Assembly: GCF_056712565.1 (NCBI RefSeq)
Contig: NZ_CM160072.1
Reading direction: 5' to 3' (one strand)
Length of the DNA: 64,000 nt
The notes beneath the pieces are model-generated. The model had not been told where the DNA came from and did not search any database. It saw nothing but the letters and a program-made list of their open reading frames with translations. The translations under genes were made by a program, and so were the position numbers. Below are positions 4,401 through 35,210 of this stretch, piece after piece; position 1 is the first letter of the stretch, and every line of letters starts with the position of its first letter.

Positions 4401-5987
4401 TCAGTTTTTCAGCCGCCGCCAGAAGGTCGTCCGGCTTATGCCTAAATAATTCGCCGCTGCTGTTTTATCGCCTTTAAATTTCTCCAGTGCCTGTTGTGGT
4501 GTCAGCAAGCGTGGAGCGGGAGTTTTCGCTGACTCGCGCGCCAGCTCCGGCAGTAGCAGCTGCAAAAATTGCGGCGTTAAATCCGGCGTCGGTTCCACAC
4601 TTAAAAACAGCGCCAGTCGCTCCATCATATTGCGCAGTTCACGAATATTGCCCGGCCAGTCGTAGTGCACCAGCACGGTTTCGCTTGCCTGTAATCCCTG
4701 GCGTAATGCGGCAGAAAACGGGGCGGAGAGCGCCGCCAGAGACACTTTCAAAAAGCTTTCCGCCAGCGGCAGAATATCCGTCACCCGCTCGCGCAGTGGT
4801 GGCAATTGCAGACGCAAAATACTCAGCCGATAAAACAGATCACGGCGAAACTGCCCTTGCCGCATATCTTCTTCCAGATTGCAGTGAGTGGCGCTAATGA
4901 CTCGCACATCCACCGGAACAGGCTGATGCCCGCCGACGCGGGTGACCTCTTTTTCTTCCAGCACCCGCAGCAGCCGAGTCTGCAACGGCAGCGGCATTTC
5001 GCCTATCTCGTCAAGAAACAGCGTGCCACCGTGGGCGATTTCGAACAGCCCGGCGCGACCTCCGCGTCGCGAGCCGGTGAACGCCCCTTCCTCATAGCCA
5101 AACAGCTCTGCTTCCAGCAACGATTCGGCAATCGCCCCGCAGTTGACGGCAACAAACGGATGCGACTTTTTGCCCTGTCGCGCATCGTGGCGGGCAAAAT
5201 ATTCCCGATGAATCGCCTGGGCCGCCAGCTCTTTGCCCGTCCCCGTTTCCCCCTCAATCAACACCGCTGCACTGGAGCGGGCATACAGCAAAATAGTCTG
5301 CCGCACCTGTTCCATCTGTGGTGATTGACCGAGCATATCGCCCAGCACGTAACGAGTACGCAGGGCGTTACGGGTGGCATCGTGAGTGTTATGGCGTAAC
5401 GACATGCGCGTCATATCCAGCGCATCGCTGAATGCCTGGCGCACGGTGGCGGCGGAATAGATAAAAATTCCGGTCATTCCGGCTTCTTCTGCCAGATCGG
5501 TAATCAGCCCCGCACCGACCACCGCTTCGGTGCCGTTAGCTTTTAGCTCGTTAATCTGCCCGCGTGCGTCTTCCTCGGTAATGTAGCTACGTTGATCGAG
5601 GCGCAAATTAAAGGTTTTTTGAAACGCCACCAGTGCCGGAATAGTTTCCTGATAAGTGACAACGCCGATAGAAGAGGTGAGTTTTCCGGCTTTTGCCAGT
5701 GCCTGTAACACATCGTAGCCGCTCGGTTTAATCAAAATAACTGGCACTGACAGGCGGCTTTTCAGATACGCGCCGTTAGAGCCAGCGGCAATGATGGCGT
5801 CACAGCGTTCGCTTGCCAGTTTCTTGCGGATGTAGGTCACCGCTTTTTCAAAGCCAAGCTGAATAGGGGTGATATTCGCCAGGTGATCAAACTCGAGACT
5901 GATATCGCGAAACAGCTCGAACAGGCGCGTTACCGATACCGTCCAGATAACCGGTTTGTCGTCATTAAGCCGTGGTGGATGTGCCAT
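4401..5987 (-). CDS. prpR: Sigma54-dependent transcriptional activator of the propionate operon
   Basis: Start taken at [10 protein letters not shown] (ORF track begins 4 codons earlier); AAA+ sigma54-interaction motifs GETGTGKE and GAFTGS, C-terminal HTH; divergent from prpB. Confidence 0.9.
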
Positions 5988-6225: not shown

Positions 6226-7116
6226 ATGTCTCTACACTCTCCAGGTAAAGCGTTTCGCGCTGCACTGTCTAAAGAAAATCCATTGCAGATTGTTGGCACC
6301 ATTAACGCCAACCATGCGCTGTTGGCGCAGCGTGCCGGATATCAGGCAATTTATCTCTCCGGCGGTGGCGTGGCGGCAGGGTCGCTGGGGCTGCCCGATC
6401 TCGGTATTTCTACTCTTGATGACGTGCTGACAGATATTCGCCGTATCACCGACGTTTGTTCGCTGCCGCTGCTGGTGGATGCGGATATCGGTTTTGGTTC
6501 TTCTGCTTTTAACGTGGCGCGCACCGTGAAATCGATGATTAAAGCCGGTGCGGCAGGATTGCATATTGAAGATCAGGTTGGTGCGAAACGCTGCGGTCAT
6601 CGCCCGAACAAAGCGATCGTCTCGAAAGAGGAGATGGTGGATCGGATCCGCGCGGCGGTGGATGCGAAAACCGATCCTGATTTTGTGATCATGGCGCGCA
6701 CCGATGCGCTGGCGGTAGAGGGGCTGGACGCCGCGATCGAGCGTGCGCAGGCCTATGTTGAAGCGGGTGCCGAGATGTTGTTCCCGGAGGCGATTACCGA
6801 ACTCGCCATGTACCGCCAGTTTGCCGATGCGGTGCAGGTGCCGATCCTCGCTAACATTACCGAATTTGGTGCCACGCCGCTGTTTACTACCGATGAATTA
6901 CGCAGTGCCCATGTTGCAATGGCGCTGTACCCGCTTTCAGCGTTCCGTGCCATGAACCGCGCCGCTGAACATGTCTACAACGTCCTGCGTCAGGAAGGCA
7001 CGCAGAAAAGCGTCATCGACACCATGCAGACCCGCAACGAGCTGTACGAAAGCATCAACTACTACCAGTACGAAGAGAAGCTCGACGACCTGTTTGCCCG
7101 TAACCAGGCGAAATAA
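6226..7116 (+). CDS. prpB: 2-methylisocitrate lyase
   Basis: 296-aa ORF, isocitrate lyase/PEP mutase family; first gene of prp operon. Confidence 0.92.
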
Positions 7117-15395: not shown

Positions 15396-16694
<1,299 letters not shown>

Positions 16695-24480: not shown

Positions 24481-25254
24481 TCAGAATTTCCAGGTCAGAT
24501 GGGCTGCAAGTTGCAGACCGTTATAATCATCGGTTGGGGTGTCGTACCACACTTTACCTGCCGTCAACCCGAGATTAAGTTGCTCAGTCAGCGGTTGAAT
24601 ACGTTGCAAACTGATGCTCTTCATGCTGCCGTAGCGTGTTTCTGGCGTCCAGTCGTAGGTGTAAGCACCTGTTCCGCGGCTTAGCCATAGTTGCGTGTAA
24701 CCAGTGCCGCGCGGGTCATTCAGACGCACGGAAATCATATTGCTGTAACTACCACCTGCATCGCTGGAGTCATAATGGGTATAGCGATAGCTGGTGATCA
24801 CCGGGCCAGTATAGAGTGATATGCCACCTTGCCAGGCATCGACTTCGACATCATCGTAATATTTAGTGTAGCGATAACCGGTCGTGAAAAGCGTTTTTGG
24901 CAACAGGGCCAGGTTAATATCCTGACGAAAATCCTGGCGGGCAAAGACCGGCGTATTATCCGCAAAGGCAATACCCGTTCGGGTTGTCAGCCAGTTATTC
25001 CATTTGTACCAGACTGCACCCTGGCCGCGAGTGGCATTGAAATGTTCAGTTTCATAATCACGACGCCCCTGGGAAAGATTAAAAAGCAGCGTTGCGTTTT
25101 CAACTTTCGCCACCAGTTCAGCATACGCTAAATTACGGTTGCCATGATCGCCAGAATAATCGGTAAAATCGTAGCCCGCGGTAATGGAAGTTAACCCGGC
25201 ATAAACGGGTAATGCGCTAAAAATTGCCGCCGCTAATAACGTCCGTTTTATCAT
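24481..25254 (-). CDS. yaiO: Outer-membrane beta-barrel protein
   Basis: 257 aa; signal peptide MIKRTLLAAAIFSALPVYA; alternating aromatic/polar strands; C-terminal TWKF. Confidence 0.75.
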   Translation of the reverse strand: MIKRTLLAAAIFSALPVYAGLTSITAGYDFTDYSGDHGNRNLAYAELVAKVENATLLFNLSQGRRDYETEHFNATRGQGAVWYKWNNWLTTRTGIAFADNTPVFARQDFRQDINLALLPKTLFTTGYRYTKYYDDVEVDAWQGGISLYTGPVITSYRYTHYDSSDAGGSYSNMISVRLNDPRGTGYTQLWLSRGTGAYTYDWTPETRYGSMKSISLQRIQPLTEQLNLGLTAGKVWYDTPTDDYNGLQLAAHLTWKF

Positions 25255-25255
25255 T

Positions 25256-25966
25256 TTAATCTCCTGTACGGATAAGTTCTTGTCGGAGTGAATAAGTTCC
25301 GGTAGGTAAATTACGTTCTACAATCACGCGCGGGCCAAGTTGCGTGTTCGGGGAAATAATTCGCCCAGGCAAAATAATAACTTGTACGCCAAGGCGTGAA
25401 CGCTGCCCGATATAACAACCTAATTTATCGCATCCGGTAGCGATAATTCCATCTGGAGTTCGAACAGACACGGGCTGTTCATCCAGACGATGATTACTGG
25501 TTCGTACTTGTGCGCCCAAATATGCCTGGTTTGCAACTACCGAGTCGGCAATAAAGCATTGCGGACCAATCGTGGCTTCCGCTTCAATAACCGCATTTTT
25601 AATTTCGGTGGCAAAACCAATTCTTACGCCATTGCTGATTATTGTGCCAGGACGAATAAACGCATAATTACCTATTAGGCAGTTTGCGCCAATCACTACC
25701 GGACCCTGAATAACGGCACCGTGGCAAATACGGGTATTCGCGCCGATAACAACCTCACCGGCACTTTCATCAATAATCACCTGGTCTGCAATCTGAATAT
25801 TTTTCTCTTTAACATTAAGCTTCAGATAGTTTTTCAGTTCCTGTGACAGAAGGGTGGGAATAAGCGGTTGACACTTCCACCAGTGCGGAATAGCGGGTGG
25901 GTTTGTCGCGCTGAGGTTCGCGTCCAGTAAAAAAGGCAATAAGTCCATAAATAATCCAGATGGCAT
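25256..25966 (-). CDS. yaiX: Hexapeptide-repeat (left-handed beta-helix) acyl/acetyltransferase; start codon uncertain
   Basis: Repeated [LIV]-G-x-x-x-x hexapeptides (VIGANTRICHGAVIQGPVVIGANCLIGNYAFIRPGTIISNGVRIG); 5' end overlaps yaiP by up to 152 bp; stop is 1 bp from yaiO ATG. Confidence 0.6.
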   Translation of the reverse strand: MPSGLFMDLLPFLLDANLSATNPPAIPHWWKCQPLIPTLLSQELKNYLKLNVKEKNIQIADQVIIDESAGEVVIGANTRICHGAVIQGPVVIGANCLIGNYAFIRPGTIISNGVRIGFATEIKNAVIEAEATIGPQCFIADSVVANQAYLGAQVRTSNHRLDEQPVSVRTPDGIIATGCDKLGCYIGQRSRLGVQVIILPGRIISPNTQLGPRVIVERNLPTGTYSLRQELIRTGD

Positions 25967-27071
25967 AAGCTAATAATACATACACAACGGAAAGCGGTGC
26001 TAAAGGCACCAACAACCAGCAACGATGAAACCAGGCGCTAAATGCACCAATAACACAAACTACGCCGACCCAGATAAGCGGGAACATTGCCAACACCACA
26101 CCATGTGGCCCGGTGGTGATGAATTCATTAAACCAGGTAGTGAGATAAATACCAACGCCATAAAGCACAACCAACAGCATAGGAAATATACTGAAGATAC
26201 CGAAGCGGCTAAATAAAAGTCTTTTATGCAGGCGCATACAGACCGCGTAGCCCACAATCCAACGCCGCCAGCGGCGCCACTCCTCACGCGGACTGTTACA
26301 TTCCTGTGGGTATACGATGCAGCGATTCGCCTGCCGAATACGGTAGCCGTTTGCCACCAATGTCCAGGTGAGATCAAGGTCTTCGACTTTAGTACGATCC
26401 GAGAAACCGAACTTACGCAATACATCAGTACGGAACATCCCGCAGGCACCGCTGATGATAAACGGTGCGCCGCCCAGAAGCTGCTGTAGCGTGCGCTTCA
26501 TAACAATCATCGGCAACTTTACGGTCGCGCGGATGTGTAGCTGCTGTAGCGTGCGCTTCATAACAATCATCGGCAACTTTACGGTCGCGCGGATGTGTGG
26601 TAACAGACCCGCGCCTTTCAACGCAGTAGAGGGAATGCCGCCTACGGCATCAGCGCCACGCTCAATTTCCGCCAGCATATAGCCCATTCCGTCTTGATCG
26701 GGCGGAACATAGGTGTCGGCATCACTTAAAAAAACCTGATCGCAGGTGGCGTAATTGAGGCCATTCATCAGCGCACCACCTTTACCGGTATTTTTTTGCG
26801 TGACGGCAACAAAGCGGTCGCCCCATTTGCGTTTGACTTCCGCCATGACCGCTTCGGTATTGTCCATGGAGCCGTCGTTAACGCAAATTACCCGGCAAAA
26901 ATAAGGGTTACGCAGCAGATTATCCAGTGACTGCGCCAGACACGGGCCTTCGTTATAAGCAGGTATAATGGCGTCAATACAGCCTTTCTTTTGGCTGGGC
27001 TTACGCCTTAACGTACTCAGAAACCATAGCAATATTGCTACGGCCATACATATAAAGATCCAGGTTTTCAT
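25815..27071 (-). CDS. yaiP: Integral-membrane family-2 glycosyltransferase (synthase-like topology)
   Basis: 418 aa; N-terminal TM, CVNDGSMDNT and SDAD (DxD) motifs, EEWRRW (QxxRW-like), four or more C-terminal TM helices; contains a 20-aa tandem duplication. Confidence 0.75.
   Translation of the reverse strand: MKTWIFICMAVAILLWFLSTLRRKPSQKKGCIDAIIPAYNEGPCLAQSLDNLLRNPYFCRVICVNDGSMDNTEAVMAEVKRKWGDRFVAVTQKNTGKGGALMNGLNYATCDQVFLSDADTYVPPDQDGMGYMLAEIERGADAVGGIPSTALKGAGLLPHIRATVKLPMIVMKRTLQQLHIRATVKLPMIVMKRTLQQLLGGAPFIISGACGMFRTDVLRKFGFSDRTKVEDLDLTWTLVANGYRIRQANRCIVYPQECNSPREEWRRWRRWIVGYAVCMRLHKRLLFSRFGIFSIFPMLLVVLYGVGIYLTTWFNEFITTGPHGVVLAMFPLIWVGVVCVIGAFSAWFHRCWLLVPLAPLSVVYVLLAYAIWIIYGLIAFFTGREPQRDKPTRYSALVEVSTAYSHPSVTGTEKLSEA
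26479..26598. repeat. Perfect 60-bp tandem duplication (2 copies) inside yaiP
   Basis: agctgctgtagcgtgcgcttcataacaatcatcggcaactttacggtcgcgcggatgtgt at 26479-26538 repeated exactly at 26539-26598; encodes HIRATVKLPMIVMKRTLQQL twice in frame. Confidence 0.95.
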
Positions 27072-27080
27072 GCAATTTGC

Positions 27081-27767
27081 TCAAAGAATCATTTTATGAA
27101 TAACAAAACCTTCACCCAGATCGCTATTGACCTGTTGCCCGCGAAATTGAGCAACTGCACGCAGACGCTCCGGGCGCATATAATCTCGCTGGCTCTGACT
27201 TTTATGTTTTTTTAACGCAGTCAGTTTAAGAGAAAAATATTCTTCTTTCACGGATTCAAAAACCTGAGGCATAAATGAAAGCCAGGTACTTGGTGTTTCA
27301 TAGCCGAGAATTTGCGGAATAGCGCGACAGGCAACCATTGAGGCTTGATAGACTGCAAGATGATCCTGATGGCGGTCAGCATCATGCATGGTATATACAC
27401 GTATAATTTCAACATCAGAGGGAATTTGATTTTTTATGATGTTTTCCAGGGCAGAAATCATATCATTGAGCTGTAAATGAGCGCGGGTGTCAGCAAAATT
27501 AAGATGAATAGTTTGGTGGCACCCTAATATCTTTAGAGCGTTGCGTGATTCTTCGTGGCGATCGATTATTCCATCTACGCCAGAATTACCGGTAGTCATC
27601 ACTACGGTAGCAATATAAATTCCTTTTTGCGCAAGGCGAGCTAGCGATGCGCCACAGCCTAATTCTATATCGTCAGGATGCGCGCCAATGGCAAGGATAC
27701 CCTTTCTTTTATTTGCCGAAGAAAGGATCGCTGAATCTAAAACCTTATCCACTTTATGACACTCCAT
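27081..27767 (-). CDS. yaiS: PIG-L/LmbE-family de-N-acetylase
   Basis: 228 aa; LAIGAHPDDIELGCG and HQDH metal-binding motifs; stop is 9 bp from yaiP start. Confidence 0.75.
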   Translation of the reverse strand: MECHKVDKVLDSAILSSANKRKGILAIGAHPDDIELGCGASLARLAQKGIYIATVVMTTGNSGVDGIIDRHEESRNALKILGCHQTIHLNFADTRAHLQLNDMISALENIIKNQIPSDVEIIRVYTMHDADRHQDHLAVYQASMVACRAIPQILGYETPSTWLSFMPQVFESVKEEYFSLKLTALKKHKSQSQRDYMRPERLRAVAQFRGQQVNSDLGEGFVIHKMIL

Positions 27768-28359
27768 TTTATTTATTATACTACAAGCACAACGACGCCC
27801 CCAGAGACGTAACCTCTGACGCAGACAGATGCTAATTTTTAAGTGTTAAAAATAGCTGATAGCTGAAAAACAAGGGGCTGTCAGGTACGGGGGTAAGAGT
27901 GTGTAATCTTTTATGTAGTTCATATGTTAAGTGTTTGTGTGTTTGGTTTGTATGGTTATTTTATTTTATATATTGTATTTAAATGTGATTTAGTTTGTCA
28001 ATTAATTGCATATTAAAAATATGTTCTATGCACAAATATTGATTATATACATTATGTGAATACATTATGTGGTTGATTGAGAATGATACATTTATATATG
28101 CAATGTGAATATAATGGTTTCATTATATGTGTTGCTGTTAATAAAATAACAGACATTAGAACCTGCTTGTTTATGCATTAATAAAATGAAGTGCAGTAAT
28201 TTACTGAGTTATCAGAGTGGGCGTAATTGCATATTTAATCTTTCCTTTGCCGCTTTTTTGCTAAGAATAAAATCATCTGTACGATAACGACTAATTCTTT
28301 TAATGAATGTTTTTATTCCTGAATACTGCTCCCATAACAAGACGGGGGAGCAGACAATC

Positions 28360-30102: not shown

Positions 30103-30926
30103 GTGTGCTCATTAATGAAAAACTGCATTCGCATCGGCTGAAATGGCGCTGGCCGCTCTCGCGTCAGGTGACCTTAAGCATTGGTACGTTAGCGGTTTTG
30201 CTCACTGTATGGTGGGCAGTCGCGGCGCTGCAACTGATTAGCCCGCTGTTTTTGCCGCCACCGCAACAGGTACTGGCAAAACTGCTCACCATTGCCGGGC
30301 CGCAGGGATTTATGGACGCCACGCTGTGGCAGCATCTGGCAGCCAGCCTGACGCGCATTGTGCTGGCGCTACTCGCGGCGGTGTTGATCGGTATTCCGGT
30401 CGGGATCGCCATGGGGCTAAGCCCGACGGTGCGCGGCATTCTGGATCCGATAATCGAGCTTTATCGTCCGGTGCCGCCGCTGGCTTATTTGCCGCTGATG
30501 GTGATCTGGTTTGGTATTGGCGAAACCTCGAAGATCTTACTGATCTATCTAGCGATTTTTGCGCCGGTGGCGATGTCGGCGCTGGCGGGGGTGAAAAGCG
30601 CGCAGCAGGTTCGCATTCGTGCCGCCCAGTCGCTGGGTGCCAGCCGTGCGCAGGTGCTGTGGTTTGTCATTTTGCCCGGCGCGCTGCCGGAAATCCTCAC
30701 CGGATTACGCATTGGTCTGGGTGTGGGCTGGTCTACGCTGGTGGCGGCGGAGCTGATTGCCGCAACGCGCGGTTTAGGATTTATGGTTCAGTCAGCGGGT
30801 GAATTTCTCGCGACTGACGTGGTGCTGGCGGGGATCGCGGTGATTGCGATTATCGCCTTTCTTTTAGAACTGGGTCTGCGCGCGTTACAGCGCCGCCTGA
30901 CGTCCTGGCATGGAGAAGTACAATGA
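30099..30926 (+). CDS. tauC: Taurine ABC transporter permease
   Basis: 275-aa multi-TM ORF; 4-bp overlaps with tauB and tauD. Confidence 0.92.
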
Positions 30927-33313: not shown

Positions 33314-33970
33314 ATGCACTCCTGGAAAAAGAAACTTGTAGTATCACAATTAGCATTGGCTTGCACTCTGGCTATCACCTCTCAGGCTAATGCAGCAAAC
33401 TATGATACCTGGGGGTATCATGACAACACCACGACCGATTTAGTTTGGCCGTATGACACTGACAATGATGGAATTGCCGATGCTGGCGGCATGGACCCGA
33501 TGGGTTCAGACGGTAACTACGTAACTTACAATGGTTTTGTTTACTATAACAATGCCAATGGCGATTTCGATACTGTCTTTAAAGGCGATACCGTTAACGG
33601 TACCATTTCTACTTATTACTTGAATCATGATTACGCTAGCGGTTCTGTTAACCAGGTAGATATCAGCAATTCAGTAATTCATGGGGCAATCACCTCTGAA
33701 CTGCCATTTGGTTATTACAGCATTACTCCTGCAGAAGTTAATGCTAAAGGTGAAGTTGTAACTCCACAGACCTATAATGGCTATAATTTCTATAACGGAA
33801 TCACTACTGACCTTGACTACAATTGGTACGATGGTGACGTATTCACTCTGAACGTATCCAATTCCACCATTGATGATGACTATGAAGCTCTTTACTTCAC
33901 TGACACATATCTTGATGGTGATAAATCTAAGTCAACCAATGAAACGTTCTATACCGCTCTGGGTGTTGCA
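33314..33970 (+). pseudogene. yaiT: Autotransporter-family protein, N-terminal fragment, truncated by IS2
   Basis: Signal peptide MHSWKKKLVVSQLALACTLAITSQANA, N/T/D-rich passenger repeats; reading frame runs into the IS2 end at 33971. Confidence 0.7.
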
Positions 33971-33981
33971 TGGATTTGCCC

Positions 33982-34887
33982 CTATATTTCCAGACACCTG
34001 TTATCACTTAACCCATTACTGGCTTGCTGCCGTAGATATTCCCGTGGCGAGCGATAACCCAGTGCACTATGCGGATGCCATTCGTTATAATGCTCGAACG
34101 CCTCTGCAAGGTTCTTTGCTGCCGTTAACCCGTCTGGTTTGGGCATGACACTGATGTAGTCACGCTTTATCGTTTTCACGAAGCTCTCTGCTATGCCGTT
34201 ACTCTCCGGACTCCGCACCGCCGTGCTCTTCGGTTCAAGCCCCAACATCCGGGCAAACTGCCGTGTTTCATTAGCCCGGTAGCATGAACCATTATCCGTC
34301 AGCCACTCTACTGGAGACGCCGGAAGCTCGTTGCCGAAGCGGCGTTCCACCGCTCCCAGCATGACGTCCTGTACTGTTTCACTGTTGAAGCCGCCCGTAG
34401 TGACCGCCCAGTGCAGTGCCTCACGGTCACAGCAGTCCAGCGCGAACGTGACTCGCAGTTTTTCTCCGTTATCACAGCGGAACTCGAACCCGTCAGAGCA
34501 CCATCGCTGATTACTTTCTTTCACAGCCACTCTGCCTGTATGTGCCCGTTTCGATGGCGGTACAGCAGGTTTTCGCTCAAGCAACAGCGCATTCTGGCGC
34601 ATGATCCGGTAAACACGTTTGGCATTGATCGCAGGCATACCATCAAGTTCTGCCTGTCTGCGAAGCAGCGCCCATACCCGACGATAACCATACGTGGGCA
34701 GCTCTCCGATAACATGGTGTATACGGAGAAGCACATCCGTATCATCAGTGTGACGACTGCGGCGGCCATCCATCCAGTCATCGGTTCGTCTGAGAATGAC
34801 GTGCAACTGCGCACGCGACACCCGGAGACAACGGCTGACTAAGCTTACTCCCCATCCCCGGGCAATAAGGGCGCGTGCGCTATCCAC
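33982..34887 (-). CDS. insD: IS2 transposase OrfB
   Basis: 301-aa ORF with DDE integrase core, ends [29 protein letters not shown]. Confidence 0.9.
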
Positions 34888-35210
34888 TTTTTTGCCCGTC
34901 CATATTCAACGGCTTCTTTGAGGAGTTCATTTTCCATCGTTTTCTTGCCGAGCAGGCGCTGGAGTTCTTTAATCTGCTTCATGGCGGCAGCAAGTTCAGA
35001 GGCAGGAACAACCTGTTCTCCGGCGGCGACAGCAGTAAGACTTCCTTCCTGGTATTGCTTACGCCAGAGAAATAACTGGCTGGCTGCTACACCATGTTGC
35101 CGGGCAACGAGGGAGACCGTCATCCCTGGTTCAAAGCTCTGCTGAACAATTGCGATCTTTTCCTGTGTGGTACGCCGTCTGCGTTTCTCCGGTCCTAAGA
35201 CATCAATCAT
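34845..35210 (-). CDS. insC: IS2 transposase OrfA (HTH)
   Basis: Start at [26 protein letters not shown]; 121 aa; overlaps insD as expected for programmed -1 frameshifting. Confidence 0.9.

Follow-up and report, generated by a model that had tools for sequence, protein, structure and literature searches.

A 60-bp in-frame tandem repeat in Escherichia coli yaiP, probably a heritable copy-number polymorphism of one ST95 sub-lineage

Tandem repeats within bacterial genes have been described in several settings, and the repeat in yaiP reported here is a known kind of variation with known mechanisms. The closest class comprises the bacterial intragenic VNTR or minisatellite (MLVA) loci. Like these loci, yaiP carries perfect head-to-tail units longer than 10 bp within its coding sequence, with a unit length divisible by 3, and the copy number (1, 2, or 3) varies among close relatives. 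Unlike these loci, the yaiP repeat is very young and found in one lineage, with the single copy ancestral in nearly all E. coli, and it lies in a conserved helix of a catalytic domain and not in a tolerant linker or surface repeat, with 1 to 3 copies observed. What is specific to the yaiP case is a combination: a young repeat, a single lineage, a conserved catalytic-domain helix of a PgaC/HAS-like synthase, and three allelic states.

A second precedent is provided by the 101-bp tetA duplications on pSTL plasmids (PMC7145654), which, like the yaiP array, are perfect tandem direct repeats of less than 200 bp inside a gene. Close direct repeats of less than 200 bp in E. coli undergo RecA-independent deletion, together with expansion, by slippage or by template switching behind the replication fork (PMC7145654). 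For yaiP, as for tetA, deletion and expansion are expected by template switching, slippage, and sister-strand exchange, and triplication is a known outcome (PMC7145654). In contrast to the tetA plasmid duplications, the yaiP repeat is natural and chromosomal, has a 60-bp unit, and is in frame, so that there is no frameshift inactivation. A third comparison is with slipped-strand contingency loci, with which yaiP shares a repeat number that changes among close relatives in a gene of the surface-polysaccharide type; unlike those loci, the 60-bp unit of yaiP never shifts the frame and has no ON/OFF logic, and the rate expected for a 2-copy, 60-bp array is far lower than that of long short-unit tracts. 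At the level of the enzyme, YaiP is like PgaC/IcaA and the hyaluronan and cellulose synthases in having a GT-A domain with a DxD motif and, judged by position, putative ED and RW-containing motifs, followed by C-terminal transmembrane (TM) helices, and, as in pgaABCD, the neighbors of yaiP include a deacetylase and an outer-membrane barrel. It is unlike PgaC/IcaA in its family score (99.7 bits versus 422) and in a QxxRW-like motif that starts with E, not Q.

The window (the whole 64,000-nucleotide stretch of DNA that was analyzed) contains a yaiP gene in which two identical 60-bp units are arranged head to tail at 26479-26598, as read from the raw sequence. The gene, the two units, and the two motifs that flank them are as follows.

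25815 to 27071, minus strand: yaiP, GT2 glycosyltransferase gene (ORF of 418 aa; RefSeq annotation yaiP, WP_024186107.1)
26479 to 26538, minus strand: 60-bp unit, lower-coordinate copy (copy 2 in the protein, residues 179-198 of 418-aa YaiP)
26539 to 26598, minus strand: 60-bp unit, higher-coordinate copy (copy 1 in the protein, residues 159-178; identical to the other copy)
26715 to 26723, minus strand: DxD motif of GT2 enzymes, D117-A118-D119 (invariant in 42 homologs)
26259 to 26279, minus strand: WRRWRRW, residues 265-271, a QxxRW-like motif by homolog alignment

Tandem Repeats Finder returned the same array with a period of 60, 2.0 copies, 100% matches, 0 indels, and a score of 240. The chance of a perfect 60-bp tandem repeat in 64 kb is about 64000 x 4^-60, which is effectively nil. 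At the protein level, the peptide HIRATVKLPMIVMKRTLQQL occurs twice in 418-aa YaiP, at residues 159-178 and 179-198. The repeat unit is one base out of codon phase, and the junction codon is CTA versus the original CTT; both encode Leu, and the peptide duplication is therefore exact. The repeat follows D117-A118-D119 and precedes WRRWRRW. Three statements of an earlier note on this DNA were thus borne out, namely, that a 60-bp unit occurs in exact tandem (raw sequence and Tandem Repeats Finder), that the ORF of 418 aa compared with 398 aa reflects an in-frame gain of 20 codons (single-copy alleles encode 398 aa), and that the insertion lies between the DxD and WRRW motifs of the GT-A domain (residue positions). 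At the duplication breakpoints, microhomology amounted to 0 bp, and a search there for register-shifted short repeats found none, the best candidate being an out-of-register 4-mer. The right breakpoint falls within the loop of a potential hairpin.

Next, the distribution of the two-copy allele was examined. yaiP was present in 4,838 of 5,426 complete E. coli genomes. The best, 100%-identical matches (ATCC 11775, S88, APEC O1, and others) span just 1,197 bp, and ATCC 11775, S88, and APEC O1 are therefore single-copy. A 90-bp junction probe, centered on the copy-to-copy junction, was matched in 4,822 complete genomes and at full length in only 10 of them, all ST95-like; in this comparison with other E. 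coli yaiP genes, which the earlier note had proposed, the two-copy form was rare (10 of ∼4,820 complete genomes). The 10 carriers represent 7 countries and three host species (human, dog, and chicken): HS13-1 (China), SF-468 (USA), Z0117EC0054 (dog, Korea), MS15052 (cerebrospinal fluid, Sweden), APEC E18055 (O2:K1:H7, chicken, Korea), APEC 16-1068 (chicken, Australia), 10035004-3 (China), AH21G053 (Australia), UID2404240036 (Thailand), and AF6 (UK). All 10 have exactly two copies with the same breakpoints and encode the identical protein, WP_024186107.1. The window represents an eleventh carrier, distinguished from the other 10 by a private SNP (position 30903) and a private IS2 of 1,331 bp, both of which they lack. 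A literature search on strains MS15052 and HS13-1 gave nothing useful. Taken with the copy-number and lineage data below, the repeat is best read as a real, heritable intragenic tandem-repeat (minisatellite/VNTR-like) polymorphism of yaiP that is confined to one ST95 sub-lineage, a reading to which we assign a probability of roughly 85%.

The earlier note had also proposed that the repeat may expand or contract. Hypothetical three-copy and four-copy proteins were built and then looked up exactly. The three-copy protein (438 aa, P0135) was recorded on 13 contigs, including the complete chromosome OZ040249.1, in keeping with that proposal. Six three-copy loci, OZ040249.1 among them, were fetched; all were perfect triplets with the marker background of the window, and no private SNP common to the six loci was present in 21 kb. 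The four-copy protein (458 aa) had no exact match among these records, which are mostly short-read assemblies that may hide at least 4 copies. Assembly with 127-mers should suffice for an array of 180 bp but would fail at 240 bp or above, and the missing 458-aa protein is therefore compatible with four or more copies. Both the two-copy array and the perfect triplets consist of head-to-tail units, as in an intragenic VNTR, and the copy number is polymorphic as in such loci, with one copy in ATCC 11775 and other ST95 strains and two or three in related strains. The 398-, 418-, and 438-aa forms are all full-length ORFs, the unit being 20 codons; a frameshift ON/OFF phase switch was ruled out, as every copy number is in frame.

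A clearer, independent instance of copy-number change came from two assemblies of a consecutive accession series. Contig JAZJDE010000009.1 (L021) is 180,005 bp long and has three copies, while JAZJFW010000011.1 (L022) is 179,945 bp long and has two; nine further contigs resemble the latter (179,945 bp, two copies). In L021 and L022, the gene starts at 177,608 and the contigs have the same end inside yaiP, and L021 minus one unit is identical to L022 over the 2.3 kb read. In this otherwise identical two- and three-copy pair, the copy number has changed recently among isolates that are nearly identical. Several more contigs stop at or within the array (P0138, P0140, P0141, P0145, and P0146). With respect to breaks at the repeat, the relevant partial proteins are those of the 438-aa cluster; the partial proteins of the 398-aa cluster were ruled out as such breaks, the single-copy alleles being truncated elsewhere. 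One-copy revertants were sought with SNP probes for the two carrier subgroups described below, and none was found among just 8 informative complete genomes.

To place the repeat in the enzyme, the family, fold, and motifs of YaiP were analyzed. In the protein, an N-terminal TM helix precedes the GT-A domain, and further TM helices lie at the C terminus. Residues 34-220 match Pfam PF00535 (GT2) with an E value of 1.7e-25, and a sequence search of the PDB with YaiP matched GT2 entries. An AlphaFold model of the 398-aa form (pLDDT 81, pTM 0.80) contains the N-terminal TM helix, the GT-A domain, and C-terminal helices at 276-362. The best Foldseek matches of this model were the hyaluronan synthases 8smn and 7sp7 (TM 0.61-0.67, E 1e-14), BcsA 4p00 was also among the matches, and the overall fold of the model is that of membrane-embedded GT2 synthases (HAS/BcsA/PgaC type). 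In addition to the DxD motif and the QxxRW-like motif, one further motif was located.

26373 to 26387, minus strand: VEDLD motif, residues 229-233 of the 418-aa form (V209 E210 D211 L212 D213 in wild-type numbering), invariant

We take VEDLD to be the presumed catalytic-base motif of processive GT2 synthases, a role known from the family. Residues E244-W245-x-R247-W248 are invariant in the homologs and have E in place of the canonical Q, their equivalence to QxxRW being judged by position. The best curated family for YaiP was PgaC_IcaA (TIGR03937), with 99.7 bits versus a cutoff of 422.3; with a score this far below the cutoff, YaiP was ruled out as a PgaC equivalog. On these models, YaiP resembles the membrane-embedded GT2 enzymes of the hyaluronan-synthase/PgaC type. 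A literature search on yaiP function found no phenotype and no YaiP product.

The duplicated residues, 159-178, almost exactly fill helix H156-178 of the 398-aa AlphaFold model, which sits between the DxD and ED motifs. Eight positions in this segment (R161, K165, P167, M168, I169, K172, R173, and Q176) are invariant in 42 homologs with identities down to 62%, and the stretch is among the most conserved of the YaiP family; none of the 42 homologs has an insertion at the duplicated segment. Its hydrophobic moment of 0.39 makes the helix moderately amphipathic, and one face carries the basic residues. In a sequence-profile search of the PDB for a name for the helix, the alignments ended at about residue 148, before the helix. 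The AlphaFold model of the 418-aa form (pLDDT 75.9) kept the GT-A core and placed copy 2 in the native helix position, while residues 153-175, i.e., most of copy 1, formed a low-confidence extension with pLDDT values below 50. The placement of copy 2 in that model depends on the homolog alignment.

AlphaFold is a poor judge of destabilization, and the 418-aa model is equally compatible with an insertion that is tolerated and with one that does damage. Given the conservation of the segment, it is plausible that the duplication alters or inactivates the enzyme, as the earlier note had surmised. The effect would most likely be a tolerated loss or reduction of activity, with a neutral, functional enzyme as the main alternative. 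Hundreds of isolates keep the allele with an intact frame, which could also mean that the longer protein is functional or even favored.

The state of yaiP in ST95 bears on this question. The substitution T69M is present in every ST95 allele; the other residues at this position in the homologs shown are T or S. On the UTI89/SF-173 branch, the D-A-D motif, which is invariant elsewhere, has been changed by A118V. Truncated single-copy yaiP genes are common in other lineages, with a 250-aa form recorded on 185 contigs and a 276-aa form on 82. In the two-copy lineage, 104 assemblies have contigs that stop at the same point inside the gene (window position 26362), a shared end that is consistent with an inserted repeat element; in 11 assemblies, contigs stop at 26234. 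The locus thus appears to be dispensable and under relaxed constraint in ST95, in which case reduced or lost YaiP activity would be tolerated.

An adaptive reading of the repeat was weighed against these data. It holds that the longer helix tunes the enzyme, or that loss of a surface polysaccharide is selected, with copy number acting as an in-frame tuning knob. In its favor, the two- and three-copy forms stay in frame, the allele has lasted through a worldwide spread, no revertant was seen among the marked genomes, the conservation of the segment marks it as functionally important, and the core fold is retained in the AlphaFold model. Persistence and frame, however, follow automatically from a neutral 60-bp unit. 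Moreover, no homolog has an insertion here (42 sequences), and the further truncation of the two-copy gene in more than 100 assemblies, together with the ST95 substitutions at conserved positions, argues for relaxed constraint. We consider an adaptive role improbable. A narrower version, in which the number of helix repeats is an in-frame, reversible device for tuning or disabling a cryptic PgaC/hyaluronan-synthase-like exopolysaccharide system and was selected in a globally successful ExPEC ST95 sub-lineage, is a shade more doubtful again; if it were true, then, for example, a surface polymer seen by host immunity or phages might be altered.

The origin of the duplication was addressed by comparison of the flanking DNA. 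The 25-kb left flank has 0 to 4 mismatches to UTI89, S88, IHE3034, NU14, and ATCC 11775, and 151 records match it at 99% or higher; judged by these matches, the carrier background is the ST95 complex. The closest single-copy genome, that of ATCC 11775, is separated from the window over 13 kb only by the 60 bp and one SNP; otherwise it is identical to the carrier consensus over the same length. The 10 carriers and the window have ∼15 variable sites over 41 kb. Subgroup I (HS13-1, 16-1068, and AF6) is marked by 7667T, 19881T, and 28117A and subgroup II (SF-468, MS15052, 10035004-3, AH21G053, and UID2404240036) by 23674A; the window, Z0117EC0054, and E18055 make up the remainder. In all carriers, 14049T and 37764T are derived in comparison with UTI89, SF-173, and the outgroup Nissle, and derived 25873A is common to all carriers and ATCC 11775. 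No SNP in the 41 to 48 kb compared separates all carriers from their nearest single-copy relatives, and the monophyly of the carriers therefore rests on the duplication itself.

The lack of a carrier-exclusive SNP in the compared region is what would be seen if yaiP were a recurrent hotspot, in which the same duplication arises repeatedly in unrelated strains and the carriers form no clade; the potential hairpin loop at the right breakpoint might stall replication and so promote such events. Several results speak against this reading, which we regard as quite unlikely. Since the breakpoints have 0 bp of microhomology, independent duplications would not be guided to one and the same junction. 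The junction is confined to one ST95 allele background among ∼4,820 complete genomes, and an exact lookup of the same duplication built on the UTI89, Nissle, and commonest E. coli alleles gave no match. The sole apparent conflict involves SNP 23674, which is A in five carriers and G in six (counting the window), with A also present in non-ST95 B2 strains. When UTI89, SF-173, and Nissle were added, both ST95 branches had G, and the four-gamete conflict was ruled out as evidence of recurrence or reversion. A 2.25-kb probe confined 23674A on the ST95 background to those same five carriers, and 23674A in subgroup II would most simply be one back-mutation. The sequence comparisons thus point to a single origin on an ATCC 11775-type allele, followed by vertical inheritance.

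Two further alternatives, which take up the very recent event and the assembly artifact of the earlier note, did not hold up. That the two-copy allele is a private, very recent mutation of one strain or an event of laboratory passage is highly improbable: although the copies are perfectly identical and the nearest single-copy genome is one SNP away over 13 kb, the allele is shared by isolates of 7 countries, 3 hosts, and many collection years (SF-468 dates from 2007-2010), and the carriers have since split into SNP-marked subgroups. At typical bacterial substitution rates, two 60-bp copies would be expected to stay identical for decades to centuries, so a perfect copy does not imply the recency that had been read into it. 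Equally improbable is that the extra 60 bp is an assembler artifact in a strain that truly has one copy; a perfect duplicate could look like misassembly and some draft contigs break at or in the array, but the structure is identical in 10 independent complete genomes that different laboratories produced (including that of SF-468, a published ST95 strain whose PacBio assembly was polished with MiSeq [Illumina] reads), the exact 418-aa protein is recorded on 209 public contigs, and a 120-bp array would be spanned by reads of at least 150 bp and by 127-mers. Two-copy yaiP is an established lineage allele and is neither an artifact, nor the common E. coli allele, nor private to one strain.

For this heritable polymorphism, a stepwise history can be proposed. 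A single non-homologous 60-bp tandem duplication, with no microhomology at its ends, would have occurred on an ATCC 11775-type ST95 allele, and the two-copy allele has since spread worldwide and diversified with its lineage, most likely by vertical inheritance. The perfect direct repeats would have served as a substrate for RecA-independent template switching, slippage, and unequal sister-strand exchange, from which the three-copy alleles may have arisen and from which one-copy revertants would also be expected. Each extra unit would add another in-frame copy of the 20 residues that cover most of the conserved amphipathic helix, and enzyme activity would probably be reduced or lost, a change that the cell would tolerate.

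The repeat leaves current understanding unchanged, and its interest is modest. It is a PCR-scorable marker of an ST95 sub-lineage, among whose members are bloodstream, meningitis, canine, and avian isolates, and its three or more allelic states could aid fine-scale typing. As a young tandem duplication that is natural, chromosomal, and in the course of expansion, it could serve to measure RecA-independent repeat dynamics outside plasmid assays. For finding the yaiSP-yaiO product, the naturally occurring series of alleles, with 0, +20, or +40 residues in a conserved helix, would be useful.

The genes next to yaiP form an apparent four-gene operon, yaiS-yaiP-acetyltransferase-yaiO, of the exopolysaccharide type, with the following features.

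27972 to 28001, minus strand: sigma-70-like promoter match upstream of yaiS (TTGACA-18-TACAAT, 11/12; a consensus match only)
27081 to 27767, minus strand: yaiS, PIG-L/LmbE-family deacetylase gene, first gene of the apparent operon, intact in the window
25256 to 25849, minus strand: left-handed beta-helix (hexapeptide) acetyltransferase gene, yaiX-like
24481 to 25254, minus strand: yaiO, outer-membrane beta-barrel gene (TIGR04390, 183.5 bits versus a cutoff of 32)

The possibility that yaiS is a pseudogene in the carriers was ruled out, its DNA being identical to that of genomes in which the gene is annotated as intact. In UTI89 and Nissle, yaiS is annotated likewise.

The yaiP duplication has no microhomology at either breakpoint, and GC-rich sequence around the right one (GCGCGG...CCCGCGC) could fold into a hairpin, with that breakpoint in its loop. 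This hairpin and two altered codons of the gene are located as follows.

Sites in yaiP (window coordinates)
about 26585-26620: potential hairpin at the right breakpoint; the single-copy equivalent lies at about 6710-6745 in locus L001
about 26718-26720: codon 118, A118V
about 26865-26867: codon 69, T69M

The T69M substitution, within a DGS-T-D stretch where other homologs carry T or S, was present in every ST95 yaiP allele, and A118V, within the otherwise invariant D-A-D motif, was present in the UTI89/SF-173 branch (loci L013 and L012). Together, these substitutions suggest that yaiP is under relaxed constraint in ST95. The two-copy gene also runs off its contig at a single shared coordinate, window position 26362, in 104 assemblies (loci L023 and L024), and a second shared contig end within yaiP, at position 26234, was found in another 11 assemblies (the three-copy contig L021 and the two-copy contig L022). 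Behind these shared ends there is probably an IS or other repeat that interrupts yaiP in carrier sub-lineages.

The neighboring yaiS gene (window 27081-27767; loci L002-L014) is annotated as intact (WP_000362014.1) in ATCC 11775 and 10035004-3 versus "pseudogene, missing C-terminus" in SF-468, UTI89, Nissle, and others, where a 39-residue YkiC-like ORF is annotated on the opposite strand. A true difference in yaiS between strains is disfavored, since its DNA was identical across the ST95 records checked (HS13-1, ATCC 11775, and 10035004-3); judged from the sequences, the discrepancy looks like inconsistent annotation.

Further from yaiP, lacY is frameshifted in four two-copy genomes (loci L003, L005, L008, and L010) by the deletion of 1 bp from a GGGCATTTTTCCC run near window position 15776. 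The span corresponding to window positions 1-25000 is also 1 bp shorter in three single-copy ST95 genomes (ZJ3920, E16002, and E18006). Either a sequencing error in the homopolymer or a mutational hotspot accounts for the lacY deletion. In UTI89, codon 113 of prpR (L013, 4401-5987) is an internal stop, SF-173 is annotated likewise, and prpR is whole in the window (4401-5987) and in Nissle; it is a branch-specific pseudogene without relation to the yaiP repeat.

Elsewhere in the window, an IS2 element lies within an autotransporter gene.

IS2 insertion and its host gene (window coordinates)
33314..37637, plus strand: autotransporter gene, 995 aa, host of the insertion
33971-35301: IS2 element, within the autotransporter gene; TnpA and TnpB each exceed NCBIfam cut-offs

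The same insertion was not found in any of the 10 two-copy genomes, in the three-copy loci spanning the site, or in UTI89, SF-173, or Nissle, and it is therefore private to the window strain. Flanked by a TTGCA target duplication (33966-33970 and 35302-35306), the element breaks up the autotransporter gene in that strain.
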